DNA of 64,000 nucleotides from Candidatus Saganbacteria bacterium (GCA_016932255.1 JAFGDE010000009.1:66114-130113); one strand, 5' to 3'. Counted from the first letter of the stretch, positions 5,648 through 64,000 are shown. Program-made: numbers and translations. The notes: generated by a model from the sequence alone, not told the origin.

Positions 5648-6040
5648 TTAGTAGGTGCCGGCCGTATCGACCGAACTTGGGGGGCAGGTCATACAGACAT
5701 CAGCTTGCGCTGACGGAGCAGCACCTTCCTCAACTGAAGCAGAACCTCTAGGGCTTGATCCGGTTGAACTAAGAGGGCAGATGTTATTGAATAGCTGATC
5801 TTCTGTTGGCAGATTAAGCACCTGGCCTGGATGGATCATATCAGCGCTTTCAAGGCCATTAAATTGCGCTATATAATTGGCAGCACGCACAGCTTCACCT
5901 GGCGAAGTAAGATCATAATTTTCTTTAGCGATCTGAGCCAGTGTATCGCCAGCCTGGACAGTGACAGTTCCACTTGTTGCCGTCCTCAACCGAGGTAGCA
6001 GGATAATATCTCCGATTTGTAGACCGAATACTTCTGACAT
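5648..6040 (-). CDS. LysM domain-containing protein
   Basis: 130 aa. LysM-like core VQAGDTLAQIAKENY...IHPGQVLNLP. No obvious signal peptide. Confidence 0.55.
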   Translation of the reverse strand: MSEVFGLQIGDIILLPRLRTATSGTVTVQAGDTLAQIAKENYDLTSPGEAVRAANYIAQFNGLESADMIHPGQVLNLPTEDQLFNNICPLSSTGSSPRGSASVEEGAAPSAQADVCMTCPPSSVDTAGTY

Positions 6041-6150
6041 TTAAAGTGCCTCCCGAATTAAATGAGCATCTTGTTTCTACTACAGAATATATCGTATTTT
6101 AAGCTTCTAAGCTTGCATGTTTTACCGTTCCCAGACATCGGAGAATTGGG

Positions 6151-13387: not shown

Positions 13388-13621
13388 GTGACTAGCGCCT
13401 ATATTCTGGTTGAATCATTGCCTGGCAAAGCTATCGAACTGACCAATATCGTCAAGGGGATCAAAGGGGTCAAGACCGTCCATCTGGTGACCGGACCCTA
13501 TGATGTGATCGCTTTTGTCGAAGCGGCAGACTTAAAGTCCCTGGGCGAAGTGATCGTAAAGAAGATCCAGTCCTCGGGCTGCGTCGCCAGGACTCTGACC
13601 TGTATCACTGTCGAGCAGTAG
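13388..13621 (+). CDS. small Lrp/AsnC ligand-binding (RAM) domain protein
   Basis: 77 aa from a GTG that follows an AGGAGG Shine-Dalgarno sequence. AYILV...V..V..V.G.YD.I..V pattern of stand-alone AsnC-type domains. The 3' end overlaps leuA convergently. Confidence 0.6.
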
Positions 13622-15152
13622 TTCCTCGACTACGCTCGATGCCTGCGTAGATCAAACGGTTGATCGCTGCCAGATAAGCTTTGCCTGAGGCCACCAGTAT
13701 GTCCGTGTCGGCGCCGTGGCCCACATAGATCTTGTCCTTATCCTTGATCCTGACCGTGACCTCTCCCAGCGCATCAGTGCCGCCGGTGATGGCTTGGATC
13801 GAATAATCCACTAAACTGGCTTTGACCTTGGTCAACTCGGCGATCGCCTTGTAGACAGCGTCAACCGGACCGGCCCCGGTCGCGACCGCCTTGATCTTTT
13901 TGCCTTTGTGGCTCAACTGGACCTTGGCTGTTGGTCGGTCATGGGTGCCTGACTTGATAGCGATCTTCTCAACGCAATATTCTTCCGGCACGACATAGAC
14001 CTCTTCGGCCACTATAATCTCCAGATCGCGCTCGCTAACCTCTTTTTTCTTGTCCGCGACCTCGAGAAACCGCTGATAAGCCTTTTCCAAAGCGTCCTTG
14101 TCCAGATCATAGCCCATGTCCTTGAACTTTTTTTGCAGGGCGTGGCGGCCGGAATGCTTGCCCATGACGATCTTGCTCTCGGTCAACCCGATGTCATTGG
14201 GATGCATGATCTCGTACGTTTCGCGGGCCCGCAAGACACCGTGCTGGTGGATGCCGGCCTCATGGGCAAAAGCGTTGGCCCCGACGACCGCCTTGTTGGG
14301 CTGGACCATCATGCCGGTGAGGTTGCTGACCAACCGGCTGGTCTTGTAGATCTCTTTGGTGTTTATCCTTGTTTCGCAGTCAAAGAAATCCTTCCTGGTC
14401 TTGAGGTTCATCACGACCTCTTCGAGCGAGGCATTGCCTGCGCGTTCCCCGATGCCGTTTATCGTGCACTCGATCTGGTCAGCGCCTGCCTTGATCGCAG
14501 CCAAAGAATTAGCTACCGCGAGGCCAAGGTCATTGTGCACGTGTACGCTGATGACCGTGCTGTTCTTCTTGATCTGCGGCACGTTCTTGATGATGTTCTC
14601 GATCAGTTGGCCGAATTCCCAGGGGGAAGTGTAGCCGACCGTATCGGGAATGTTCACGGTTTGAGCGCCGGCGTCAATGACCGCGCCGACGACCTTGTAA
14701 AGGAATTCAGGGTCAGACCTGCCCGCGTCCTCCGGAGAGAATTCCACATCCGGGCAGAGTGATCTGGCATATTTGACCATCTCGACCGCCTGCTTGAGCA
14801 CCTGCTCAGGTGTCATCCGGAGTTTTTTCTCCATGTGAATAGGAGAAGTGGCGATGAAAGTGTGGATCCTGGGCCGCTCGCAGTATTTGACCGCTTCCCA
14901 GGCGCGCTCAATGTCCTCTTTTTTGGCCCTGGCCAGGGAGCAGATCTGAGGGCCTTTGACTGTTTGGGCAATGGCCTTGATCGCGTTAAAATCGCCCTGC
15001 GAAGCAATGGCAAAGCCGGCCTCGATCACATCAACATTGAGCTTGGCCAGCTGGCGGGCGATCTCCAGCTTTTCTTCGGGATTAAGCGACGCGCCAGGGC
15101 ACTGTTCGCCGTCCCGAAGAGTGGTGTCGAATATCTTGATTGTTCTGGTCAT
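13605..15152 (-). CDS. leuA: 2-isopropylmalate synthase
   Basis: 515 aa. [24 protein letters not shown] and a C-terminal LeuA dimerisation/regulatory domain. Confidence 0.92.
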
Positions 15153-15201
15153 AATGATCCCTCCTGAATCAGGGGTTTATTCTAACATAATTTGCCGTGA
15201 A

Positions 15202-15233
15202 ATGCGAAATATCTTTAATGAACAAGCGATAAT
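15202..15233 (+). promoter_or_regulatory. loose copy of the ATGCAAGTT-N13-TACGATA motif (ATGCGAAAT-N14-AGCGATAAT)
   Basis: Read directly from the sequence. The spacer is one nt longer than in the strong copies. The downstream box ends 7 nt before the ATG at 15240. Confidence 0.3.
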
Positions 15234-21892: not shown

Positions 21893-23389
21893 ATGCGTGT
21901 AGCCCGTTCTGTCCTTGTCTGCCTGGTCCTGTGCCTGTCCGTTTTTCTGTCCTTTGGCTGCGGTTCCGGTGGTGGCGGTGGTACGCCGACGACCACGACA
22001 ACTGTTACGACCACGACCACAGTCACATCCACTTCGACCGTGACCAGTACTACGGCCGCGGGCAGCACCAGCACCACATCGACCACCACCACTACGCTAA
22101 AAGTTTCAGCTCCGACCTTTGGTACGGCGTCAGGCTCTTACGAGGCCTCAGCTGTATCGGTGACGATCTCCTGTGCCACGGCCGGGTCCAGCATCTACTA
22201 CACGACAAATGGCAGCAACCCGACCACCTCTTCGACCCCTTATACCGGGGCGTTCGATCTTAATTCTTCAAAAGCACTCAAAGCTATTGCGGTCAAGTCG
22301 GGCATGGCCAACAGCGATATCTCCAGCGCCTGGTATGATGTTTACTGGTGGCAGCCGGTCGGCACCCTTGACAACACTGTTGAAGCGCTGGCCATGACGG
22401 ATACCGGTGTAATAGCCGGCGGACATTTCACAGGCTATGCGGCGCAATGGACAGGCAGCGCGTGGAGTCCTCCGCCGTCAGCCTTTAACGGGCCGGTCAA
22501 TGTCATTGTTGTGAACCCTGCTGACAGCAGGATCTATGTCGGCGGCAACTTCACCACCCCGGGTAATTATATTGTAAGCAGTGACGGCCCAACTTTTTAT
22601 GACTTGGCCAGCGGTGTAAACGCTGAAGTCTTAAGCCTGGCGGTCGACGGCTCAGGCAATGTTTACACAGGCGGCAAATTTACGACTGCTTCGGGTGTAT
22701 CCAGTGCCCGTGTGGTCATGTGGAATCGCAGCGGGACAAGCTGGGAGGCGCTGCAGGGGGGCACAACTAATACTGTGTATGCATTGGCTTATGATACCGA
22801 CGACGACCTTCTCTATGCTGGAGGCACGTTCAGCAAAGCTGGCGATGTTACAGCTAATAAAATAGCTGTTTGGAAAGCAGCTGTAGCTACACCGACATGG
22901 GAAGCTATCCCTAATGATCTAATGTATAACGGGGCGAGCGGCCCGGTCATGGCTTTGCTGGTCCATTCAGGAGGGGATTTACTTGTTGGTGGTACGTTCA
23001 ATCAAGTCGGTGTAGGGGGAAGCCCTGTTACTGCGCATAATATAGCTTATTATGATCCTGGTGGTGGTACCTGGAACGGGTTTGGCACAGGCGTAGATAA
23101 CACTGTCAGGGTGATCGCCCAATCGTATACCAAAAGCTATGGCGGCGATAATATACTTATAGGCGGCGACTTTATCCAGGCAAATGGGACGGATGCTGCT
23201 TATCGTATTGCCAGGTCAAGCCTGGGCGGCGGTCAGACCTGGACCCAGCTTTATAACGGGGTCGCTGGTTCGGCAACGGTCAAGGCGATTTGTATCGACC
23301 AGACTAACGGGGATATATATATTGGCGGCAGTTTTACTGAAGTGGGCGGTGTTGCCTGCAGTAACGTGGCCAAGTTCGGCAAGAAATAA
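21893..23389 (+). CDS. probable lipoprotein: Thr-rich linker + chitobiase/hexosaminidase-C-like domain + repeated GGxF beta-propeller
   Basis: 498 aa. Signal peptide ending ...FLSFGC, poly-Thr/Ser linker, SVTISCATAGSSIYYTTNGSNPT domain, then about 7 repeats of the y(v/i)GGxFt..g... type. It is a paralogue of 34347-35819. Confidence 0.7.
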   Translation: MRVARSVLVCLVLCLSVFLSFGCGSGGGGGTPTTTTTVTTTTTVTSTSTVTSTTAAGSTSTTSTTTTTLKVSAPTFGTASGSYEASAVSVTISCATAGSSIYYTTNGSNPTTSSTPYTGAFDLNSSKALKAIAVKSGMANSDISSAWYDVYWWQPVGTLDNTVEALAMTDTGVIAGGHFTGYAAQWTGSAWSPPPSAFNGPVNVIVVNPADSRIYVGGNFTTPGNYIVSSDGPTFYDLASGVNAEVLSLAVDGSGNVYTGGKFTTASGVSSARVVMWNRSGTSWEALQGGTTNTVYALAYDTDDDLLYAGGTFSKAGDVTANKIAVWKAAVATPTWEAIPNDLMYNGASGPVMALLVHSGGDLLVGGTFNQVGVGGSPVTAHNIAYYDPGGGTWNGFGTGVDNTVRVIAQSYTKSYGGDNILIGGDFIQANGTDAAYRIARSSLGGGQTWTQLYNGVAGSATVKAICIDQTNGDIYIGGSFTEVGGVACSNVAKFGKK

Positions 23390-24013: not shown

Positions 24014-24044
24014 ACGCAAGAAAGCCTCTTTTTATCACGATTAA
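24014..24044 (+). promoter_or_regulatory. variant copy of the ATGCAAGTT-N13-TACGATA motif (ACGCAAGAA-N13-CACGATTAA)
   Basis: Same 13-nt spacing and the GCAAG / ACGAT cores. It is intergenic and co-oriented with the 696-aa ORF. Confidence 0.4.
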
Positions 24045-32723: not shown

Positions 32724-32755
32724 AGAGCCGGCTTTGATAAATAGTCCTGTTGTGT

Positions 32756-32761
32756 TATAAT
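32756..32761 (+). promoter_or_regulatory. extended -10 box (TGtTATAAT) 9 nt upstream of the cimA ATG
   Basis: ttgTGTTATAATttctccgtcATG. No Shine-Dalgarno sequence lies in between. Confidence 0.45.
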
Positions 32762-32770
32762 TTCTCCGTC

Positions 32771-34333
32771 ATGCAAGTAAAATTGTTCGATACGACATTG
32801 CGCGACGGCGCCCAGACAGAAGGCATCTCTTTTTCTCTTGAGGATAAGATTAAAATAGCCAAGCTGCTCGACGAGCTCGGCGTTCATTATATCGAAGGCG
32901 GCTGGCCCGGTAGCAATCCCAAGGATATCCAGTTCTTCAAAGCGATCAAAAAAGAGAAGCTGTTGACCGCCAAGATCGTGGCCTTTTCCTCGACCCGCCG
33001 TCCTGGCGTTAAGGTCGAAGATGACAAGAACATCCAGACCCTGCTAAAAGCCGAAACGCCCGCGGTCTCGATCTTCGGCAAATGCTGGGACTTCCATGTG
33101 ACCGACGCGCTCAAAACAACCCTGGGAGAGAACCTGGCCATGATCAAGGAAACAGTGGCTTACGCCAAGCAAGCCGGCAAAGAAGTTATCTTTGACGCGG
33201 AGCATTTCTTTGACGGGTTCAAGGCCAACCAAAAATATGCTATCGAGTGCCTGAAAGCGGCGACCGAGGGCGGCGCGGACCTGCTCTGCCTCTGCGATAC
33301 CAACGGCGGGACACTGCCTCATGAAGTGCTTGAGATAGTGCTCGACACCAGACGCATGACCACCAAGCCGCTCGGCATCCACGCGCACAATGATTCCGAG
33401 TGCGGGGTCGGGGTGTCACTGGCCGCGGTCAAGCAGGGCTGTGTCCAGGTCCAGGGCACCATGAACGGTTACGGCGAAAGATGCGGCAACGCTAATCTCT
33501 GTTCCATCATCCCGACCCTCTCGCTTAAAATGGGCATCGACTGCATTACCAGAGAGAATTTAAAACGCCTGACCGAGGTCAGCCGCCATATAGCGGAAAT
33601 AGCCAACCTGCCGCAATCAATGCATCAGCCTTTTGTCGGCCGCTCGGCCTTTTCGCACAAGGGCGGCATCCATGTTTCAGCCGTGGTCAAGAACCCGGGT
33701 ACTTATGAGCACATCAAGCCCGAGGCCGTGGGCAACGAAAGAAGGGTGACCGTATCTGAGCTGTCCGGCGTATCGAACCTGATGGTCAAGGCCAAGGAAT
33801 ATGGCGTCGATCTGGATAAGAACGACAAGCGGACCAAAGAGCTGATCACGGTCCTGAAACAGCTGGAGAGCGAGGGTTATTCGTTCGAGGAGGGTGAAGC
33901 CAGTTTTGAGCTGCTGCTCAAGCGCACCCTCGGCCTGGTCCAGCCTTCATTTGAGCTGGAGGATTTCCTGATCGAGACCCACAAGGAGAGCGCCAATGCG
34001 CCGGTCGTGACCGCCCATGTCAAGATAATGATCAAGAATAAGGTCCACGACGCCACCGGCTCGGGCGACGGCCCGGTCAACGCCATTGACACGGCCCTGC
34101 GCAAAGTGCTCGAGCGCATCTATCCCGAGATCAAGAAAGTAAAACTGACCGATTATAAAGTGCGCGTGCTCAATTCCGAGGCCGGCACCGCGGCCCGGGT
34201 GCGCGTTATCATCGAGTCTGCCGACGAAACCCGCACCTGGGGCACGGTCGGCGTTTCCACCAACGTGATCGAGGCTTCCTGGCTGGCCCTCGTTGATGCC
34301 ATCGAATACAAACTGATGCCTGAGAAAAAATAA
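32771..34333 (+). CDS. cimA: citramalate synthase
   Basis: [30 protein letters not shown] and a C-terminal LeuA-dimer-like domain fit CimA-type (R)-citramalate synthase. I chose the ATG at 32771. Confidence 0.85.
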
Positions 34334-34346
34334 AAAGGGGCCGCTA

Positions 34347-35819
34347 ATGCGAAGAACGTTGTTGCTGCTGTTTGCTTTATCTTTTTGTTTGCTGGCCAAT
34401 GGTTGCGGCAACGATGATATTGTCACGGTCTCGACCACGGCCACCAGCCTGACAACAGTGACCGGTCCTTTGAGCACAAGCACCACTTCGCCGTCGGTCA
34501 GTAGCACGACCGTCGCCTCAACGACCAGCACGACCTCGACCACCCTGGCGACAGTGGCAACGCCGTATTTTGTCACCAGCCCGGACTCATATGAGGGGAC
34601 ATCCCTTAATGTTACTATAGAATGCTCAACCCCCGGCGCGACCATCTATTACACGACCGATGGTTCCACGCCGACAACAGGCTCTTCTGTTTACTCGGTC
34701 CCGGTGGCTCTTTCAGCCTCGAAGAATGTCAGGGCCATGGCGGCCAAATCAGGGATGAACAACAGCTCGCCTACTTCCGGCCAGTTCGATCTCTGGTACT
34801 GGCAGGCCTTAAGCGGCGGTCTTAATAATGATGTTCGGGCCTTGGCCATGGACGACTCGGGCAATGTCTATGTCGGCGGGTGGTTTAATGATGTCAACGG
34901 GGAAACTGATTTTGACGGTCTGGCTATGTGGTCGGGCGGCGGCTGGCAGCGGGTCGGCGGCAGTCTGGACAATGATGACAGCGTCAATGCTCTTCTCTTC
35001 GATGGTTCGGGCAACCTGATTGTTGGCGGCGGTTTTGATGACGTTGGAGGTGTAACTAACGCTGATAATATCGCCCGTTGGACCGGCTCGAGCTGGGAAG
35101 CCTTTGGCAGTAATACCAGTACCGGCTACGTTAATGCCATTGCTTTGGACGGCACGACCATGTATATCGGAGGCAGTTTCGCTAACATGGGGGGCGACGC
35201 TAATGCGGACAATGTGGCTTACTGGGATGGTGCCTGGAACGCTATGGGCAGCGGTCTTGATTCCCAGGTCCTTGCTTTACATCAGCTGGGCGTCAATACT
35301 TATGTCGGTGGTTATTTTGACAATGCCGGCGGGCAACCGGAAGCGGATTCGATCGCCCGCTGGATCGGCGGCAGCTGGTTGAGTGTCGGCACTTCAGGTA
35401 TCGGTGAGAGCAGCCGTGTTGAGGCAATTGTCAGCTACAATTCCAATATGATTATAGGTGGTGTTTTTAGCAATGCCGGCAGCGTGCCTCAGGCCGATGA
35501 TCTTGCCAAATGGAACGGCGCTGCCTGGTCGGCCATCGGCGGCGGGGAATTCTCCGGTTCCGTATATTCCCTGTATCATGACGGCACCGATCTTTATGTC
35601 GGTGGTTTCTTTGATGATGCGGCCGGGATCCCGGAGGCGGATTCCTTTGTTATCTGGACCGGTTCTACCTGGGAGGCGAAAGGCGACCTGCAGATCAGCG
35701 GCAGCTCTGTCCGTGCTATCCTAGTCAACGGCGATGAAATATATATCGGCGGCTCTTTTCAGAACGCGGCAGGGATCGCTGACGCTGATTATGTGGCCAG
35801 GTGGGCTAGGCTGGAATAG
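34347..35819 (+). CDS. probable lipoprotein: Thr/Ser-rich linker + chitobiase-C-like domain + GGxF beta-propeller (paralogue of 21893-23389)
   Basis: 490 aa. Signal peptide ending LANGC, T/S linker, LNVTIECSTPGATIYYTTDGSTPT, then seven YVGG(W/F/S)F...A(D/N)..A.W.G..W blades. Confidence 0.7.
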   Translation: MRRTLLLLFALSFCLLANGCGNDDIVTVSTTATSLTTVTGPLSTSTTSPSVSSTTVASTTSTTSTTLATVATPYFVTSPDSYEGTSLNVTIECSTPGATIYYTTDGSTPTTGSSVYSVPVALSASKNVRAMAAKSGMNNSSPTSGQFDLWYWQALSGGLNNDVRALAMDDSGNVYVGGWFNDVNGETDFDGLAMWSGGGWQRVGGSLDNDDSVNALLFDGSGNLIVGGGFDDVGGVTNADNIARWTGSSWEAFGSNTSTGYVNAIALDGTTMYIGGSFANMGGDANADNVAYWDGAWNAMGSGLDSQVLALHQLGVNTYVGGYFDNAGGQPEADSIARWIGGSWLSVGTSGIGESSRVEAIVSYNSNMIIGGVFSNAGSVPQADDLAKWNGAAWSAIGGGEFSGSVYSLYHDGTDLYVGGFFDDAAGIPEADSFVIWTGSTWEAKGDLQISGSSVRAILVNGDEIYIGGSFQNAAGIADADYVARWARLE

Positions 35820-38288: not shown

Positions 38289-38346
38289 GGGATTATTTCG
38301 CAGCCTCGCGGCCGGAATTTCATTTTGTCTGATGTATTTTCTGTGT

Positions 38347-58694: not shown

Positions 58695-58725
58695 ATGCAA
58701 GTTCAAGCGCCTGAATTACGATAAT
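58695..58725 (+). promoter_or_regulatory. promoter-like motif copy A: ATGCAAGTT-caagcgcctgaat-TACGATAAT
   Basis: Read directly from the sequence. It is intergenic, about 40 nt upstream of the ATG at 58767. Confidence 0.55.
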
Positions 58726-58766
58726 ATCAGTGTAAGACCGATCAATTCCCAAGGAGGAATAAGTTA

Positions 58767-59669
58767 ATGAAAAAGTTTCTTGTTCTGCTATCTGCCATTT
58801 TGATCGTCACTTCTGTCTGTTTCGCGCAAGAGAACATGGGTGCCAGGCCGATCGCCATGGGTGGCGCTTTTACCGGGCTGGCGGACGATGCCAATGCCAT
58901 TTTTCTCAACCCGGCCGGTATCGGCTATATTGAGGGCGAGGTCGCTGCTATTTCGACCAAGATCTCGGAAGGCAGTGAATATACCATCCTGGGCGGGGTC
59001 GAAAACACGCCTTACGGCAGTTTCGGTGTAGGCTACATCAGCTCATCTTACATTATTGAAGACCTGGAAACATCATCGGAGCTGGTAGATGCCGGGGACG
59101 CTTCGAACAAGAATTTAAACCAGACCTTGGTTTTGTCCTACGGCAGGCAGCTCAATGACTTCATGGTCGTGCCGAAATTCATGGGACGCTTGTCCCTGGG
59201 CACGAACGTCAAATTTGTCAGTTCCAAGATCAATAACGCCAAAGGCCTGACCAGCAGATCTGATTCAGGCCTGGACCTTGACCTGGCCGCTGTTTTTCAG
59301 CCTAATGATCATATCTCCTGCGGCATGAGCGTCAGGAATATTCTTGCTGCTGGGTCGGCCCTGGAGGACAGTTCAGAACCGTCCAGCCCGACCATGTCAG
59401 CTGGCATCGCCGGCAGGCTTCTTAATGATTCTTTGATCATCAGCCTGGAAACAGGCGCCGCTGGTGTGGAAGTTAAACTGATGCCGGAGCTGGCCTTAAG
59501 GGTCGGACGCGACGGCGACTATACGACCGGCGGGATAGGCGTCAGCCTCAATGGTGTTGGCATTGACTATGCTTATCTGAAAAAAGCCGAGCCTGTTCAT
59601 TACATAGCGATCTCGCTGGCTTTTGACAATCCGACCGATACCAGACAGGCGAGCATTATTAAGGAGTAG
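58767..59669 (+). CDS. outer-membrane beta-barrel protein, PorV/PorQ-like
   Basis: 300 aa. Signal peptide ending CFAQE. The N-terminal GARPIAMGGAFTGLADDANAIFLNPAGIG signature, as I recall it for PorV/PorQ-type barrels. Alternating beta-strand pattern. AAGGAGG Shine-Dalgarno sequence. Confidence 0.6.
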   Translation: MKKFLVLLSAILIVTSVCFAQENMGARPIAMGGAFTGLADDANAIFLNPAGIGYIEGEVAAISTKISEGSEYTILGGVENTPYGSFGVGYISSSYIIEDLETSSELVDAGDASNKNLNQTLVLSYGRQLNDFMVVPKFMGRLSLGTNVKFVSSKINNAKGLTSRSDSGLDLDLAAVFQPNDHISCGMSVRNILAAGSALEDSSEPSSPTMSAGIAGRLLNDSLIISLETGAAGVEVKLMPELALRVGRDGDYTTGGIGVSLNGVGIDYAYLKKAEPVHYIAISLAFDNPTDTRQASIIKE

Positions 59670-59717
59670 GGGGGCTTCCCGCAAATCTCTACTCACTGCT
59701 TTCTACTATCTAATTTT

Positions 59718-59757
59718 GGGGGGCGTTCTAGGCAGATGGCGCGCCCCTCTTTTTTTT
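59718..59757 (+). terminator. probable rho-independent terminator (GGGGCG...CGCCCC + T-run)
   Basis: 6-bp GC stem (59720-25 / 59742-47) with a large loop, followed by tcT8. Confidence 0.5.
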
Positions 59758-59759
59758 GT

Positions 59760-59765
59760 TATAAT
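59760..59765 (+). promoter_or_regulatory. extended -10 box (TGtTATAAT) 8 nt upstream of the ATG at 59774
   Basis: tttTGTTATAATgcggccaaATG. No Shine-Dalgarno sequence is present, which implies a leaderless transcript. Confidence 0.45.
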
Positions 59766-59773
59766 GCGGCCAA

Positions 59774-60493
59774 ATGATCATATTAAAATTCCTGTTCTCA
59801 TTGTTCTTTTGGGTCTATATCCAGCTTGGGATCCTGCTTGTGCTGATCTTGTCGCTGCCGGCCAATCTGCTGCCTAACAGGGGCAGGGCTTTCAATTACG
59901 CTTTGGCCAAGCTGCTGCTCAGGCTGCTCTTCTTTATAAGTTTTTTCAGGATAAGATTAAAAAGCGGCCAAAAAGTCGGCTTGGTGAACAGGGAGATCTT
60001 GATCGCCAATAAACCGGACCTGCTATCCACCTTTGCCTTGATCATCTCATTGCCGCGCCAGGTGCGGTTTGTCGCTGCCGAGAATATATTTTATATACCT
60101 TTCTTTGGCTGGCTGCTTAAGGCCATCGGCTGTATCCCGGCGGGAAAAAAACTTGGAGGTCCGCTGGGCTTTGCAGTTTCAGTGATGGCAGCGATGAAAC
60201 AGAACGAGGCTGTCTTGTTCTATCCCAGGAACCTGAGGCGTTTTAACGGCCGAGTCAGCGAGTTCAAGCCGGGAGAGATAAGCGTAGCCAGATCGGCCGG
60301 AGCGACCCTGCTGCCTTTGGTTGTGACCGGCACAAAAAAGCTGATCAAACGGGGCAGTGTCCTGCTCTGGCCCGGGGCGATCGAGATAACCGTTCATGAG
60401 CCTGTTACGCCGGCTGAGCTGGGATCGGTCGATACGGTCATGGCCAGGCTCACAAGGCTTTATCAGGGTGAATTACCGTTTGAAGGGGATTGA
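59774..60493 (+). CDS. lysophospholipid (PlsC-type) acyltransferase homologue with degenerate catalytic motifs
   Basis: 239 aa. N-terminal TM and PlsC-like block II (FFGWLLKAIGCIP). Block I reads NKPDLLS instead of NHxSxxD (60008-60028). Block III reads FYPRNLRR instead of FPEGTR (60218-60241). Confidence 0.65.
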   Translation: MIILKFLFSLFFWVYIQLGILLVLILSLPANLLPNRGRAFNYALAKLLLRLLFFISFFRIRLKSGQKVGLVNREILIANKPDLLSTFALIISLPRQVRFVAAENIFYIPFFGWLLKAIGCIPAGKKLGGPLGFAVSVMAAMKQNEAVLFYPRNLRRFNGRVSEFKPGEISVARSAGATLLPLVVTGTKKLIKRGSVLLWPGAIEITVHEPVTPAELGSVDTVMARLTRLYQGELPFEGD

Positions 60494-60496
60494 ATA

Positions 60497-60688
60497 GTGT
60501 TATTTTGGGGAATAATCATTTTTCTTGTTATTATGCTTATTTTAACAGGTCTTTGGATGATCGTTTATTCAAGCCGCTCTTCACGGGCCAGGCAAGGCCT
60601 GCGTCAGCTTGACCGGTCGGTCGCTGAATTTGACCGCCGGATCACAGAGGCAATCGATACCCTGGACCGAGCCGCTGAAAAAAAATAA
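60497..60688 (+). CDS. small bitopic protein (N-terminal TM + charged helix)
   Basis: 63 aa. The GTG start comes after a GAAGGGGA Shine-Dalgarno sequence, 4 nt after the upstream stop. Confidence 0.45.
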   Translation: MLFWGIIIFLVIMLILTGLWMIVYSSRSSRARQGLRQLDRSVAEFDRRITEAIDTLDRAAEKK

Positions 60689-60699
60689 TCATAAGCCCC

Positions 60700-60730
60700 A
60701 TGCAAGTTATTTGCCGCTGATCCCGATAGT
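60700..60730 (+). promoter_or_regulatory. promoter-like motif copy B1: ATGCAAGTT-atttgccgctgat-CCCGATAGT
   Basis: Read directly from the sequence. It is the first of two tandem copies upstream of 60816. Confidence 0.5.
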
Positions 60731-60762
60731 ATTCAATGAGAGATAGTAAATTATGCTTTTTT

Positions 60763-60793
60763 ATGCAAGTTATCGGCTTGTTGATACGATAGT
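60763..60793 (+). promoter_or_regulatory. promoter-like motif copy B2: ATGCAAGTT-atcggcttgttga-TACGATAGT
   Basis: Read directly from the sequence. It lies 22 nt upstream of the ATG at 60816, with a GGGAGGAG Shine-Dalgarno sequence in between. Confidence 0.55.
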
Positions 60794-60815
60794 TAGGTAG
60801 AGGGAGGAGTAGCTC

Positions 60816-61220
60816 ATGACAACTTGGGGAGTAAGTCCGGTCGGCGTCAGCACGGTTGGTACTGCTGATGCGTCAAGGACCGGCACCACCAGACATCTCA
60901 ATCCTGATCAGAGGTTCCGTTCGGAAGTCGGCCAGGCCGGCCAGGCCGGCTGCGACGCGATCGGCGGCACCAGCACCCGGGATGCTGAAGATGCTTTTGT
61001 TTGTTATGATAATAATGGCTATCAGCAGTCGCATCGCGGCTCGCTGTTTGAATGGATGGCTTACGGCATTGGCCGCCTGTTCGGGTTATACGATGTTGCC
61101 GGTGAGGCGCCTGATGTGCAGCAGCCGGACACAGCCGCGGCTGATGTCCTGCCGGGTGCTGGTGGAAGCGAGACCGCTCCCGGAACAGGCATTCCATCAT
61201 CTTTAACAGGGACTTATTAA
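60816..61220 (+). CDS. hypothetical protein
   Basis: 134-aa ORF with a strong Shine-Dalgarno sequence. No TM, signal peptide or family recognised. Confidence 0.5.
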   Translation: MTTWGVSPVGVSTVGTADASRTGTTRHLNPDQRFRSEVGQAGQAGCDAIGGTSTRDAEDAFVCYDNNGYQQSHRGSLFEWMAYGIGRLFGLYDVAGEAPDVQQPDTAAADVLPGAGGSETAPGTGIPSSLTGTY

Positions 61221-61221
61221 A

Positions 61222-61449
61222 ATGTGGGAATTTATCGTTCAAAACTTTAATTGGTTCACTTTCTTCCTGGCGCTGGGCGTTTTTGCCCTGCTGCAGAGCA
61301 TAGTGAATTTCCTGATCGCCCGTTCCGCCAGAAAGAGGGCGCGTCAAAGAACAGCGGTTGCTGAACAGAAGTACCAGGAACTTAAAGGCAAATTTGAGAC
61401 TAAGAAGCAGGAATACGACCAGATCTTAGGCACCAAGGAGGCCAAGTAA
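61222..61449 (+). CDS. small bitopic protein (N-terminal TM + Lys/Glu-rich helix)
   Basis: 75 aa. The start lies 1 nt after the upstream stop. Same design as the 63-aa protein at 60497. Confidence 0.5.
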   Translation: MWEFIVQNFNWFTFFLALGVFALLQSIVNFLIARSARKRARQRTAVAEQKYQELKGKFETKKQEYDQILGTKEAK

Positions 61450-61452
61450 GCC

Positions 61453-62925
61453 ATGACCGGCCCTAACGGCATATTAGTACCAGGAGCAACAGCTCACGCG
61501 ACGGCTGCGCCGGCTGTGACCGCGGCTGCCAGCAGCCAGCCTGATCAGGTTGGCGATCCCCGGTATTCACGCTCCTCGGCTCTTCTGGTCGTGCGTGAAT
61601 GGGATCCCCTGACCAACGAAGGCGACGAGAACAACGGCGCCATTGCTGATGCGCTGGTCGCCCAGATGGGGCCGGAAGATGAAACTCCCGGCCAGCTGAC
61701 CTTTGATGAGTTCCGCGAGGCCACCGGTTTTGATGACATGACCGAAGAGGCCTGGAACGCCATGATCGGCTTTGATCAGGGCAATACCCAGCTGGGTACA
61801 GGCGCGGCTGAAGGCGAGTTCGTTGTCAAGGACCTGAGGCACCTGGCCAGCTATTTGCAGCAGTTCCGCTTCTATACCGAGATCACCGGAGTGAATTTTG
61901 ACCGTTTTGCCAGATGGGAAAATATCACCATCGTGCCGAGGGAGCAGCTGCTCCAGTACATGATGTCCCTGAGCGAGCAAGGGATACGCGACCTGGTCCA
62001 CGGCATTAATTACCAGCACGCACTCCAGGCCCTGCGCCGGCTGGGCATCGTTAATATCGATGACCTGCCGGGCACTGATCAGGGCCGGCTTGAAGATGCT
62101 ATGGTCGAGGCGGTTATTCGATTGCAGGACGCTGCAGCCGGCAGCGGGCCGGCGGCTTTGCGCGCCAGACACGTCCTGAGCATGATCGGCCTGTTGACCC
62201 TGGGCCGGCTCAATGAACAGGTCGAGGATGAACATGGCAAGCCCGGCTTGGCTGCCGAGCGTTACGGCCTGCGGGACCCTCTGGCCGCGCGGCATTTCCT
62301 GAACACGGTCTTTACGTCCTATATCGCCGGAGAGACCATTTCCGACGAACAGCTTGAGGCTCTTGAAGGATTCTCTGATTCTGTCGGCCTGCTGCGGGAA
62401 GCTGCTGGCGATAATGTTGAGTTGAACCAGAAGATCGACAACGCTGATTATGAGTCTGAGGAGTTCCAGCAGGTGCTGGGCATGATCGATGGCTCGGCCA
62501 CCCATGAAGACGGTTCTGATTATACCGAGGTCGAGATCCAGGCCGCTATCAGGGACCTGCCGCAGGTCTTGACCCACACACCGGGTTCAACGACCCATTC
62601 AGCTGCTTCAGGCACCCTGGTCCCGCATCTACCTGGCGCTGTGCCTGGCCAGCCTGAACTGACCGTGGAAGATATCGAGATCACGCCGGCCCCTGTTAGC
62701 CAGGATGAGAGCCCTGAAGAAGCTGCTGCAGAAGGATCAGGAGAAGTTGCAGAAGAATCAGAGGAAGTTACGGAAGAACCAGAGGCAGCTGCCGCAGAAC
62801 CAGAAGCAGATGAGCCGGTGACTGATGAAACAAGCGGTACTGATGGGATCGAACCAGCAGCTATTCCCGTAATGCCTGAAGAGCAGCATGCTGTTGGGTA
62901 TCAGCCCATGGCTATCGTTGTTTAA
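61453..62925 (+). CDS. hypothetical acidic protein with Glu/Pro/Ala-rich C-terminal tail
   Basis: 490-aa ORF with an AAGGAGG Shine-Dalgarno sequence. No TM, signal peptide or family recognised. Confidence 0.55.
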   Translation: MTGPNGILVPGATAHATAAPAVTAAASSQPDQVGDPRYSRSSALLVVREWDPLTNEGDENNGAIADALVAQMGPEDETPGQLTFDEFREATGFDDMTEEAWNAMIGFDQGNTQLGTGAAEGEFVVKDLRHLASYLQQFRFYTEITGVNFDRFARWENITIVPREQLLQYMMSLSEQGIRDLVHGINYQHALQALRRLGIVNIDDLPGTDQGRLEDAMVEAVIRLQDAAAGSGPAALRARHVLSMIGLLTLGRLNEQVEDEHGKPGLAAERYGLRDPLAARHFLNTVFTSYIAGETISDEQLEALEGFSDSVGLLREAAGDNVELNQKIDNADYESEEFQQVLGMIDGSATHEDGSDYTEVEIQAAIRDLPQVLTHTPGSTTHSAASGTLVPHLPGAVPGQPELTVEDIEITPAPVSQDESPEEAAAEGSGEVAEESEEVTEEPEAAAAEPEADEPVTDETSGTDGIEPAAIPVMPEEQHAVGYQPMAIVV

Positions 62926-62972
62926 AGCCTATTAAATTCCCCTTTAATTAGCCCAAAAACCAGCTTATTTCT

Positions 62973-63003
62973 ATGCAAGTTTTACCCTGCTGATTACGAT
63001 ATA
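62973..63003 (+). promoter_or_regulatory. promoter-like motif copy C: ATGCAAGTT-ttaccctgctgat-TACGATATA
   Basis: Read directly from the sequence, in an intergenic position. An in-frame ATG (63012) lies 9 nt after the downstream box. Confidence 0.55.
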
Positions 63004-63011
63004 TAAGTAGA

Positions 63012-64000
63012 ATGGTTAATGTCGGAGATGTATCACAATCCCAACAAATAGCTGAGGAGCAGATGCAGGACCAGGTTGCTGGTGCCGGCGCTGAGCCTGA
63101 GTATCTCATTAATAACTCCATCCAGATGCAAGGGCTTGAAGCGGCCGACACTGCTGAGATCTCCGGCGGGCTATATTGCACTTCATCGGCCGTTGCTGAG
63201 GCTATTATCAGATGCAGTTCCGGGTCCGAGGACGAGGAACAGTACATCGAGAACACCACTGAGTACGAAGAAAAGGTCGGCGGCAGCGGTGGCGGTGGCA
63301 CGGAAGAGCCCTCGGGGACTTCCGGTTCTTCAGGGACTTCCGGCTCCTCCGGCACCTCGAATTCCGGCTGGTCAGGCGCCTATGACGCGCTCAAATCTTA
63401 TGAAGACAGCCTCATGGACGATGTCTTTGGTTTTGATGATGAAGACTTCATGACCCAGAACTCCGACGGCTACTGGGAGCTTGATGCCGAGGCCTTGCTG
63501 GCCTGGCAGATGAAACTGCTCAAGAAAGCCAATACCATGGGCTGTATGATGATCATGATGTCCAGCCCGTCCGAATGCCGGGCCATTGTTGAGGAAACGC
63601 TCACTGAAGTGCCTATTGAGGTCGAGGACGGCAAGAACTCATACAAGGAAGTCTATGCCCGCAGGATGGGCTTGATCCAGAAACTTGTCGGCACCGCTAT
63701 CAGCACCCTCTTTAAACAGATCAATGACCGCAACCAAAAGATCTATCAGCAGAAACTAGATGAGATCCAGGCGGAGAACGAAGGCTGCGGTGCGGATACC
63801 GCGAACTTTATAACCGGCGGCAAAGGCGATATCGAGACCCAGGAAAAAGCCCTGCAGGAAACCTGTGAATATCTTGAGGCTTCCAAATCAGCCCTGGCGG
63901 CAATGCAGGAAGTTGTCCGCTCATTGATGGAATTCCTTAAGGAAAGCGCGGCTGCCGGCGATATCGGCGCCATGGGCATGATCGATGCGCTGAAAAAGTT
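63012..64000 (+). CDS. hypothetical protein, 3'-truncated by the window end (Gly/Ser/Thr linker + helical region)
   Basis: It is absent from the ORF track because no stop is reached. In my own translation this frame is open from the ATG at 63012 to 64000. An alternative start is the ATG at 63063, after GAGGAG. It contains GGSGGGGTEEPSGTSGSSGTSGSSGTS, encoded by about 18-nt repeats. Confidence 0.55.
   Translation, partial: MVNVGDVSQSQQIAEEQMQDQVAGAGAEPEYLINNSIQMQGLEAADTAEISGGLYCTSSAVAEAIIRCSSGSEDEEQYIENTTEYEEKVGGSGGGGTEEPSGTSGSSGTSGSSGTSNSGWSGAYDALKSYEDSLMDDVFGFDDEDFMTQNSDGYWELDAEALLAWQMKLLKKANTMGCMMIMMSSPSECRAIVEETLTEVPIEVEDGKNSYKEVYARRMGLIQKLVGTAISTLFKQINDRNQKIYQQKLDEIQAENEGCGADTANFITGGKGDIETQEKALQETCEYLEASKSALAAMQEVVRSLMEFLKESAAAGDIGAMGMIDALKK

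Follow-up and report, generated by a model that had tools for sequence, protein, structure and literature searches.

In a stretch of 64,000 nucleotides from a Candidatus Saganbacteria bacterium (GCA_016932255.1, JAFGDE010000009.1:66114-130113; hereafter the window), we find five strong copies of a rigid two-block motif, in which an upstream block is followed at a fixed distance by a CGATA box. The motif is a conserved feature of the Margulisiibacteriota, Saganbacteria included, and it is very probably a promoter of which both blocks are read by an alternative sigma factor. The best description that we can give of it is a variant of the sigma-28-class promoter, which would serve a large, non-flagellar regulon of uncharacterised genes that extends over a candidate phylum. 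As to the cognate factor, we lean, by a little, towards a member of the sigma-28 clade.

Margulisiibacteriota and Saganbacteria are uncultured sister lineages of the Cyanobacteria, known almost only from metabolic reconstructions. In the literature that we searched we were able to find neither work on their transcription nor a description of the motif; motif strings returned primer matches only. A rigid, searchable promoter would make hundreds of co-regulated dark-matter genes accessible to computational analysis. Such a promoter would mark which orphans group together, where transcripts start and which start codons are the true ones.

Copies of the motif in the window

The pattern ATGCAAGTT-N13-(T/C)(A/C)CGATA is found four times in the window, always on the plus strand (58695, 60700, 60763 and 62973). 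The identical 9-mer, the 13-nt spacers and the downstream boxes that a first-pass annotation of this DNA had reported for these four copies are exact matches, and the CTGA(T) that it saw ahead of the downstream box in three of them is there as well, in the form (C/T)TGA(A)T. Written as ATGCAAGTT-N15-CGATA, the pattern occurs exactly 4 times, compared with 0.00 expected (0 of 100 dinucleotide shuffles), and the 9-mer has no further exact copy in the window. On the other hand, the list of strong copies was incomplete: a relaxed scan finds a fifth one on the minus strand (6118..6090, ATGCAAGCT-N13-TACGATA, one mismatch), 49 nt upstream of ATG 6040, the start of a LysM protein of 130 amino acids (aa). 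CGATA is present in all five. The earlier statement that each of the four copies lies between genes and has the orientation of the gene that follows is borne out and extends to the fifth, with distances of 10-87 nt to the start codon.

We built a position weight matrix (PWM) from 75 sites in related genomes. With this matrix the five strong copies score 25-42 bits, while shuffled windows give at most 16.2 bits. The next-best matches in the window have 16.5 bits (61251, minus strand) and 13.7 bits (24014). The match at 61251 was rejected, as it is intragenic and has no CGA. Two looser copies had been proposed earlier, and they fare differently. The one at 15202, with a spacer of N14, scores below 8 bits and was rejected; the one at 24014 has a score inside the shuffle range and is therefore marginal, but it is well placed, 10 nt before ATG 24053 of a 696-aa orphan. 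An orphan in the related locus L139 is preceded by a similar variant (ACGCAAGAA..TACGATT), and its protein is not homologous to the product of 24053. The predicted promoters are as follows.

58695..58732, plus strand: predicted promoter, copy 1; PWM 29.0 bits; -35-like octamer GCAAGTTC at 58697-58704; -10-like octamer TACGATAA at 58717-58724; predicted start ~58732 (T-G, motif positions 37-38)
60700..60737, plus strand: predicted promoter, copy 2, upstream copy of a tandem pair; PWM 25.0 bits; -10 octamer CCCGATAG; predicted start ~60737
60763..60800, plus strand: predicted promoter, copy 3; PWM 33.6 bits; -35 octamer at 60765-60772; -10 octamer TACGATAG at 60785-60792; predicted start ~60800
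62973..63010, plus strand: predicted promoter, copy 4, highest score; PWM 42.3 bits; -35 octamer at 62975-62982; -10 octamer TACGATAT at 62995-63002; predicted start ~63010
6081..6118, minus strand: predicted promoter, copy 5, before the 130-aa LysM gene; PWM 27.0 bits; predicted start ~6081
24014..24044, plus strand: possible weak or variant copy; ACGCAAGAA-N13-CACGATT; PWM 13.7 bits

Copy 1 is predicted to drive the gene of an outer-membrane barrel through a 35-nt leader with a Shine-Dalgarno sequence, and copy 3 is the predicted promoter of the operon 60816-62925. Copy 2 has the CC variant of the -10 box, which is common in relatives; tandem copies are found in L137, L009 and L177 too. A short ORF with ATG 60736 (MRDSKLCFFMQVIGLLIR*) is found in the 34 nt (60729-60762) that separate the box of copy 2 from copy 3; read by eye, it extends through copy 3.

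The predicted start of copy 4 lies 2 nt before ATG 63012, so that the mRNA would be effectively leaderless. On a Logan contig the start of this gene is called at a position that corresponds to 63063 (L001 5107); ATG 63012 lies 10 nt after the box. We favour 63012 because the N-terminus is conserved with the 1765-aa orthologue in L139 and because of the position of the promoter, and the call at 63063 is probably wrong.

Spacing, conserved positions and predicted start

The distance between the two blocks is strict. In 0.48 Mb of related DNA, GCAAGTT-N15-CGATA is found 84 times, the same pattern with N14 once, and those with N10-13 or N16-21 not at all. Several positions outside the search pattern are conserved as well: T10 and T11 (0.86-0.97), which make the upstream block GCAAGTTTT, an A/T-rich run at positions 30-35 after CGATA, T37 (0.73) and a purine at position 38 (0.92). 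A set of 188 independent metagenome sites reproduces T10/T11, the A/T run, T37 and the purine; in this set the -10 core has frequencies of 0.99-1.00 for C25, G26 and A27, 0.94 for T28 and 0.88 for A29.

Position 38 is 8 nt past the octamer TACGATAA. In the fliC promoter of P. aeruginosa the octamer occupies -15 to -8 (PMC12784957), and if TACGATAA is placed in the same way, position 38 becomes the transcription start, which is where we infer it to be. Furthermore, start codons peak 10-12 nt after the box, and this distance would fit leaderless mRNAs.

Distribution across genomes and metagenomes

We scanned one genome per species, 185,579 species in all, for ATGCAAGTT-N13-TACGATA (16 specified bases) and obtained at least 119 stretches with the motif. 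Among the matches listed, 39 of the 119 stretches are titled Margulisiibacteriota, Saganbacteria, candidate division WOR-1 or Marinamargulisbacteria (below, the Margulis matches), about 9 further stretches from other bacteria resemble them, and the other taxa are scattered singletons, as expected by chance. One WOR-1 genome holds at least 6 copies, five of which are on one 83-kb contig. On viral contigs the 16-base pattern has 14 matches, all singletons.

The matches can be told apart by the positions that the search pattern leaves free. Among the matches listed, the Margulis ones score +4 to +21 bits at these positions, with one exception, and the remaining ones less than +1.3 bits, save the approximately 9 stretches from unnamed bacteria, a bin titled Omnitrophota and two viral contigs. 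A Shine-Dalgarno sequence and an ORF start within 150 nt downstream are found, again among the matches listed, at 32 of 39 Margulis sites, as compared to 9 of 68 sites in other taxa and 2 of 14 on viral contigs. The intergenic, co-oriented and start-proximal placement for which the first-pass annotation proposed to test in related genomes is seen at the Margulis sites, unlike at the chance matches in other taxa.

A second scan, of metagenomes with an 18-base version of the pattern, gave at least 120 stretches that hold 188 sites above 22 bits. Over Margulisiibacteriota genomes and metagenomes the motif recurs hundreds of times with its strict spacing; nearly all copies lie between genes, in the direction of the next gene and with 10-120 nt to its start codon.

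The site in the Omnitrophota-titled bin (L036, DATJPS010000005.1, titled Candidatus Omnitrophota bacterium, site 2808) scores 46 bits and has the full flanking consensus. This contig may have been binned or classified wrongly; otherwise, the promoter type reaches beyond the Margulisiibacteriota.

Genes downstream of the motif

The genes that follow the motif in the window had been described as impossible to assign to a family, apart from one PorV-like barrel, and our searches agree. Pfam has no match for five tested genes in the motif-driven units (58767, 60816, 61222, 61453 and 63012); 35 of the 44 tested window genes without the motif have a Pfam domain. For the motif-driven genes NCBIfam returns only a sub-threshold match to PorV/PorQ, for the barrel, and LysM, for the 130-aa protein.

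58767..59669, plus strand: 300-aa outer-membrane barrel with signal peptide, distantly PorV/PorQ-like (NCBI JW782_02915, Candidatus Saganbacteria bacterium)
60816..61220, plus strand: 134-aa orphan without signal peptide, no Pfam or NCBIfam family
61222..61449, plus strand: 75-aa protein with one transmembrane segment, in the same operon as 60816, no family above threshold
61453..62925, plus strand: 490-aa acidic helical orphan, in the operon of 60816 (NCBI JW782_02940, Candidatus Saganbacteria bacterium)
63012..64000, plus strand: giant protein, N-terminal 329 aa, cut by the window end; orthologues of 1557-1831+ aa
5648..6040, minus strand: 130-aa LysM-domain protein without signal peptide, NCBIfam LysM with E down to 1.8e-7

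The barrel matches NCBIfam NF033709 with E = 6.6e-19 and 68.6 bits and does not reach the cutoff of 90; on this match it is taken as a distant relative of PorV/PorQ and not as a certified member. The N-terminus of the 134-aa orphan, MTTWGV, resembles MNTWGV in L034. Both the 75-aa and the 490-aa protein have homologues in L068 and L139, the former at the same position and the latter with 31% identity. Homologue searches with the 490-aa protein, as a single sequence and as a three-sequence profile, retrieved only the protein itself, and a single-sequence AlphaFold2 (AF2) model of it was discarded as unusable (pLDDT 39.6). The giant protein belongs to a family of 7 members and is 41% identical to the 1765-aa protein of L139, with an alignment that begins at M1; we were not able to find a Pfam or PDB match for it. 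In L059, a small LysM-like protein likewise follows an exact copy of the motif.

The proteins encoded at 5648-6040 (minus strand) and 60816-61220 (plus strand), which are unrelated, both end with G-T-Y (…DTAGTY*, …SLTGTY*). Among the regulon proteins of relatives, no common C-terminal motif was seen.

In relatives, about 94% of the 209 downstream proteins that we scanned have no Pfam domain. The approximately 12 that do have one carry transglutaminase, Ig-like, GT2, TPR, GGDEF, cohesin, type IX sorting tail or PorP/SprF domains; GGDEF was found in 2 of 136 metagenome downstream proteins scanned, and Por_Secre_tail and PorP_SprF are single matches. There is no sigma factor among the 209. The downstream proteins have a median length of 138 aa, the shortest being about 40 aa long and the longest exceeding 3,500 aa. 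Of those that follow about 270 sites in relatives, roughly 90% are without a hydrophobic stretch at the N-terminus; over the first 20 residues, N, P, S, Q and I are over-represented and E, L and W under-represented, a composition that recalls non-Sec secretion signals in no more than a suggestive way. We also considered the small helical proteins as type III needle-like or flagellin-like. This was not supported; the sole hint is a sub-threshold match to HrpF (E = 0.0066), and no significant tblastn match to Salmonella FliC, B. subtilis Hag, FlgM, PrgI or MxiH was obtained over the loci.

Conserved islands of orphan genes

The orthologues of the barrel fall into about 43 protein clusters at 36-64% identity, and all named ones are from Margulisiibacteriota or Saganbacteria. 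Three contigs (L135, L137 and L139) were picked via barrel-protein identity alone, without the motif, and are free of ascertainment bias. They share the gene order of the window: a housekeeping block (Wzy, sugar transferase, FAD enzyme, DUF218, YgbB, PdxJ, RpiB and NTP-transferase), the barrel, sometimes an acyltransferase, and then orphans, that is, more than 10 kb of co-directional genes, nearly all of which have no Pfam match. The three contigs have 5, 4 and 6 PWM sites, respectively. Each site coincides with the start of a called gene and has the orientation of the genes. A single site, before a Pfam-less 500-aa gene in L139, falls outside the orphan half.

Pairs of promoter and gene are conserved although the proteins have diverged. 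The motif precedes the barrel in the window, L030, L074, L135 and L139. It precedes the first small orphan after the acyltransferase in the window (60763), L137 and L139, with strong scores, and an exact copy stands before the positional orthologue of the 134-aa gene in L068. The giant protein is preceded by the motif in the window (62973), L139, L066, L091, L100 and L077; in L139 its ATG lies 11 nt after the box and the N-terminus is conserved. In L056, L078 and L100, copies are found just past the barrel, the acyltransferase or the NTP-transferase. In WOR-1 42_35, twelve co-directional orphans with five motif sites occupy the 22 kb after the NTP-transferase gene, and none of the 11 orphans scanned has a Pfam family above threshold.

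The families that recur between genomes are the giant protein, a 520-aa protein, a 240-aa protein, the 75-aa membrane protein and the 475-490-aa protein. When three of the conserved island families were searched as profiles against the PDB, no match had an E below 0.8. In summary, the part of the window from 58.7 to 64 kb is the start of such an island. If we had to guess, the island would encode a cell-envelope or secretion apparatus with non-Sec substrates.

Similarity to sigma-28 promoters

The first-pass annotation noted that CGATA recalls the sigma-28/FliA class, and stated that the upstream block and the spacing differ. The first part holds; the difference, however, is mostly one of register, and only the first two bases of each octamer differ. 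The consensus of E. coli sigma-28 is TAAAGTTT-n11-GCCGATAA, where n11 between the octamers equals N15 counted from the tetramer (PMC2859248). When the motif is written as GCAAGTTT-N12-TACGATAA, it matches this consensus at 12 of 16 positions, including AAGTTT and CGATAA. The -10 octamer has the sigma-28-type form nnCGATAA with the invariant CGA, and the -35 octamer GCAAGTTT agrees with TAAA(GTTT) at 6 of 8 positions through AAGTTT, without T1 and A2.

In the sigma-28 family the central CGA is invariant, whereas the -35 tetramer varies by clade and is TAAA, TCAA or CTCA; WhiG2 promoters have T(A/C)AA-N16-GCCGATAA and WhiG1 promoters CTCA-N16-17-GCCGAACT (PMC12871210). Re-registered as GCAAGTTT-N12-TACGATAA or as GCAA-N16-TACGATAA, the motif has a spacing that fits the family. 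This spacing is fixed: GCAA-N16-TACGATAA accounts for 84 sites, and one site is 1 base shorter.

We propose that an alternative sigma-70-family factor of the sigma-28 (FliA/SigD/WhiG) type, conserved across the Margulisiibacteriota, would read the copies directly. In this model, GCAAGTTT (about -36 to -29) would be contacted by region 4 of the factor, and TACGATAA (about -16 to -9), with its invariant CGA core, by regions 2-3. The purine about 8 nt past the octamer would be the first transcribed base, which would give either short leaders with a Shine-Dalgarno sequence or leaderless mRNAs. The regulon would be non-flagellar and would consist of lineage-specific genes without known domains, with conserved co-directional islands that include giant proteins, with many small proteins that have no signal peptide, and with the PorV-like barrel.

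Among known systems, the class 3 promoters of sigma-28 (FliA) in E. coli, Salmonella and Pseudomonas are similar in their bipartite octamers, AAGTTT, CGATAA and the invariant CGA, and the start predicted here, about 8 nt past the octamer, is that of P. aeruginosa fliC. They differ in the spacer (12 nt here, 11 nt there), in the first two bases of each octamer and in their regulon, since we found no flagellar or chemotaxis genes among the targets. The octamer first bases can apparently drift while AAGTTT and CGATAA stay fixed.

WhiG is a sigma-28-family factor on a non-flagellar programme, sporulation (PMC12871210). The WhiG promoters of the Actinomycetota resemble the motif in the spacing GCAA-N16-TACGATAA, in a -35 tetramer that is one base from TCAA and in the invariant CGA. 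On the other hand, they belong to another phylum, the -35 block is much longer and more rigid here (ATGCAAGTTTT), and the targets here are unrelated orphans. Chlamydia has retained a sigma-28-family factor for non-flagellar late genes, a small regulon of known function, whereas the regulon here is large and made up of lineage-specific uncharacterised genes. Following Streptomyces WhiG and Chlamydia, the Margulisiibacteriota would be the third lineage with a sigma-28-type promoter on a non-flagellar programme.

Several observations weigh against a sigma-28-type factor, or against direct reading by a sigma factor at all. First, the octamers begin differently from the consensus, with GC instead of TA at -35 and with TA instead of the extended -10 GC at -10. 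In E. coli, changes of T1 or A3 in the -35 element abolish sigma-28 activity (aer213, aer214; PMC2859248), so that a Margulis factor must read the -35 element differently. Second, TACGAT keeps T-12, A-11 and T-7 of the sigma-70 -10 hexamer. Third, flagellar Pfam families are absent from the 209 downstream proteins scanned; a class 3 flagellar regulon includes flagellin, hook-associated proteins, FlgM and motor and chemotaxis genes. Fourth, tblastn with regions 2-4 of E. coli FliA and RpoD found no sigma-70-family gene, either in the window or over some 1.1 Mb of loci from relatives, which comprise about 0.4 Mb of genome loci, three homology-fetched loci and 0.69 Mb of metagenome loci. Fifth, the phage copies described below stand before seemingly early genes, which suggests that the factor is available at infection; this is not what one would usually expect of a factor sequestered by an anti-sigma factor.

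Finally, about 21% of sites carry a second GCAAGTT-like heptad within the spacer, at motif positions 14-20, that is placed exactly 11 bp past the first one. This arrangement resembles a direct-repeat activator site, and a simple sigma model has no explanation for it. A match of at least 5/7 is found at 39 of 188 sites, compared with 0-5 sites at other offsets, and the mean match is 3.1/7, compared with 1.2-2.0 at most other offsets (2.55 at offset 14). In the window, copy 60763 has GCTTGTT; the clearest cases are in L088, L100, L093, L021 and L026. We rejected the second heptad as an alternative -35 element, which is unlikely because there is no CGATA at the matching distance.

Near none of the approximately 270 sites in the loci searched did we see a sigma gene, and there is no FlgM or FliA gene in the loci read. 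Flagellins and FlgV homologues have been noted in the literature for some Margulisbacteria; the supplements of the FlgV paper have no Margulis entries.

Alternative explanations

The comparative evidence (enrichment, spacing, placement, orthologous positions and Pfam-less targets) gives good support to the earlier reading of the motif as the mark of a distinct regulon of uncharacterised genes, under an alternative sigma factor or a dedicated activator. Besides a sigma-28-type factor, we weighed three other explanations.

Potentially, the factor could be an alternative sigma outside the sigma-28 clade, either of the extracytoplasmic function (ECF, group 4) type or an unclassified, phylum-specific one of group 3, in which case the resemblance to sigma-28 would have arisen by convergence or date back very far. 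We consider this improbable. ECF promoters of the Bacillus SigW type have TGAAAC-N16-CGTA, and the geometry TGCAAG-N17-CGATA is near to it. The regulon has a type IX secretion flavour (the PorV/PorQ-like barrel, Por_Secre_tail and PorP_SprF), and in Porphyromonas the type IX secretion genes depend on an ECF sigma factor. The lack of flagellar targets among the 209 downstream proteins would also fit. However, ECF promoters have AAC in the -35 and CGT in the -10 element, and the letters found here are the sigma-28-like AAG and CGA, within the match at 12 of 16 consensus positions that includes AAGTTT and CGATAA. ECF regulons are usually small and autoregulated, with the sigma and anti-sigma genes in an adjacent operon, whereas the loci studied here carry numerous promoters (as many as 6 sites within 21 kb, and at least 188 sites over the 0.69 Mb of loci selected by the motif), and none of the approximately 270 sites has a sigma gene nearby.

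A dedicated activator, for example of the OmpR/PhoB type, would bind the upstream block and replace the -35 element, and the housekeeping sigma factor would use TACGAT as a weak -10 box. We regard this as quite unlikely. Activators of this type bind 7-bp direct repeats with an 11-bp period that replace the -35 element, as in the pho box, and it is here that the second heptad matters: with 39 of 188 sites, compared to 0-5 elsewhere, it gives a layout of a 7-bp repeat, a T-rich stretch of 4 bp and another 7-bp repeat that recalls the pho box in about 21% of sites. The three key TATAAT positions kept in TACGAT, and the use by phages before small genes, would fit dependence on the housekeeping holoenzyme too.

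On the other hand, only the first heptad never varies, and some 80% of sites have a degenerate second one or none. The second repeat would lie at about -24 to -18, over the spacer and the extended -10 region, and the repeats are some 5 bp closer to the -10 box than those of the pho box. Furthermore, the CG at -13/-12 is invariant in about 270 sites, and these are positions that sigma-70 does not read specifically; the invariant CGA is not required by a housekeeping sigma factor. The sites have neither TTGACA-N17-TATAAT nor TGnTATAAT, and there is no TG at the extended -10 position, on which the housekeeping promoters of this genome rely. A generic sigma-70 scan does not call the sites (0 of the 5 strong window copies). 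A promoter of a single-subunit phage-type RNA polymerase, which we also considered, is unlikely, the motif being bipartite with an unconserved spacer.

That the motif is no promoter and instead a REP-like repeat, the end of a mobile element, a recombination or replication site or an RNA-level motif is effectively excluded by the placement data: the copies are clustered and at times in tandem (60700/60763, and in L009 and L177), as such elements may be, but there are two blocks with a fixed-length unconserved spacer, strict co-orientation with the downstream gene, a constrained distance to the start codon that peaks at the leaderless distance, no inverted-repeat structure, phylum-wide occurrence at orthologous gene starts while the flanks diverge, and no Rfam family in the eight motif-bearing loci scanned.

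Phages and a candidate leader RNA

Three viral contigs have authentic-looking copies before small genes, 1-3 each and three on two of the contigs.

L007, IMGVR_UViG_3300015370_000036: terminase, portal and major head protein by PHROG
L009, IMGVR_UViG_3300037067_007745: terminase by PHROG
L177, IMGVR_UViG_3300014204_000572: gene layout as in L007

In L007 and L177 the copies are on the strand divergent from the structural module, ahead of small ORFs. The three contigs are probably phages of Margulisiibacteriota that use the host factor, and the promoter could help to assign phages to this phylum.

The comparison also indicates a candidate new leader RNA. In relatives, the long leaders (80-150 nt) of some island genes contain a first hairpin with the loop (U)UGCCUGU, followed by a terminator-like hairpin with a U-run that has the complementary AACAGG in or next to its loop. 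Such leaders are found in L034 (two), L088 (sites 826 and 4243), L128 (3080 and 6209), L093, L132, L018 and L049. TGCCTGT occurs 10 times within 120 nt downstream of sites, where 0.6 are expected, minimum free energy (MFE) folds yield both hairpins, and no Rfam family covers them. The pair could be a kissing-loop attenuator. The UGCCUGU/AACAGG element is absent after the window copies, which have short leaders.

Taken together, one may sketch a wider picture, which is speculative and in our own estimate rather doubtful as a whole. A sigma-28-descended factor, fully separated from flagella, would run a phylum-specific programme for an undescribed envelope, secretion or cell-surface apparatus that has substrates of its own. 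This apparatus would be encoded in conserved islands of at least 20 kb with giant proteins (up to more than 3,500 aa), small proteins that lack a known fold and a signal peptide, and the PorV-like barrel, fine-tuned by the kissing-loop leader attenuator and tapped by phages.

Other features of the window

The rest of the window consists of housekeeping genes, such as riboflavin genes, glycine cleavage, RtcB, Trk, LeuA, TldD, aro genes, TyrRS, rhamnose and O-antigen genes and PdxJ. That these use -10 boxes of the TGnTATAAT type, as proposed earlier, proved correct. The extended -10 box TGTTATAAT is found at 38344, 54837 and 59757, 17-32 nt before the starts 38370, 54869 and 59774. Close variants of it precede leuA and other genes, and there are further boxes at 15187, 21725, 26759 and 30216 (minus strand). 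In general, these boxes lie 12-35 nt before start codons (for example, 17 nt from the 59757 box to ATG 59774), so near that many of the mRNAs are probably leaderless or nearly so.

We also see two paralogous secreted-type proteins with CHB_HEX_C_1 and Fn3_assoc domains (21893-23389 and 34347-35819) and two LeuA/homocitrate-synthase-like genes (13605-15152 and 32750-34333).

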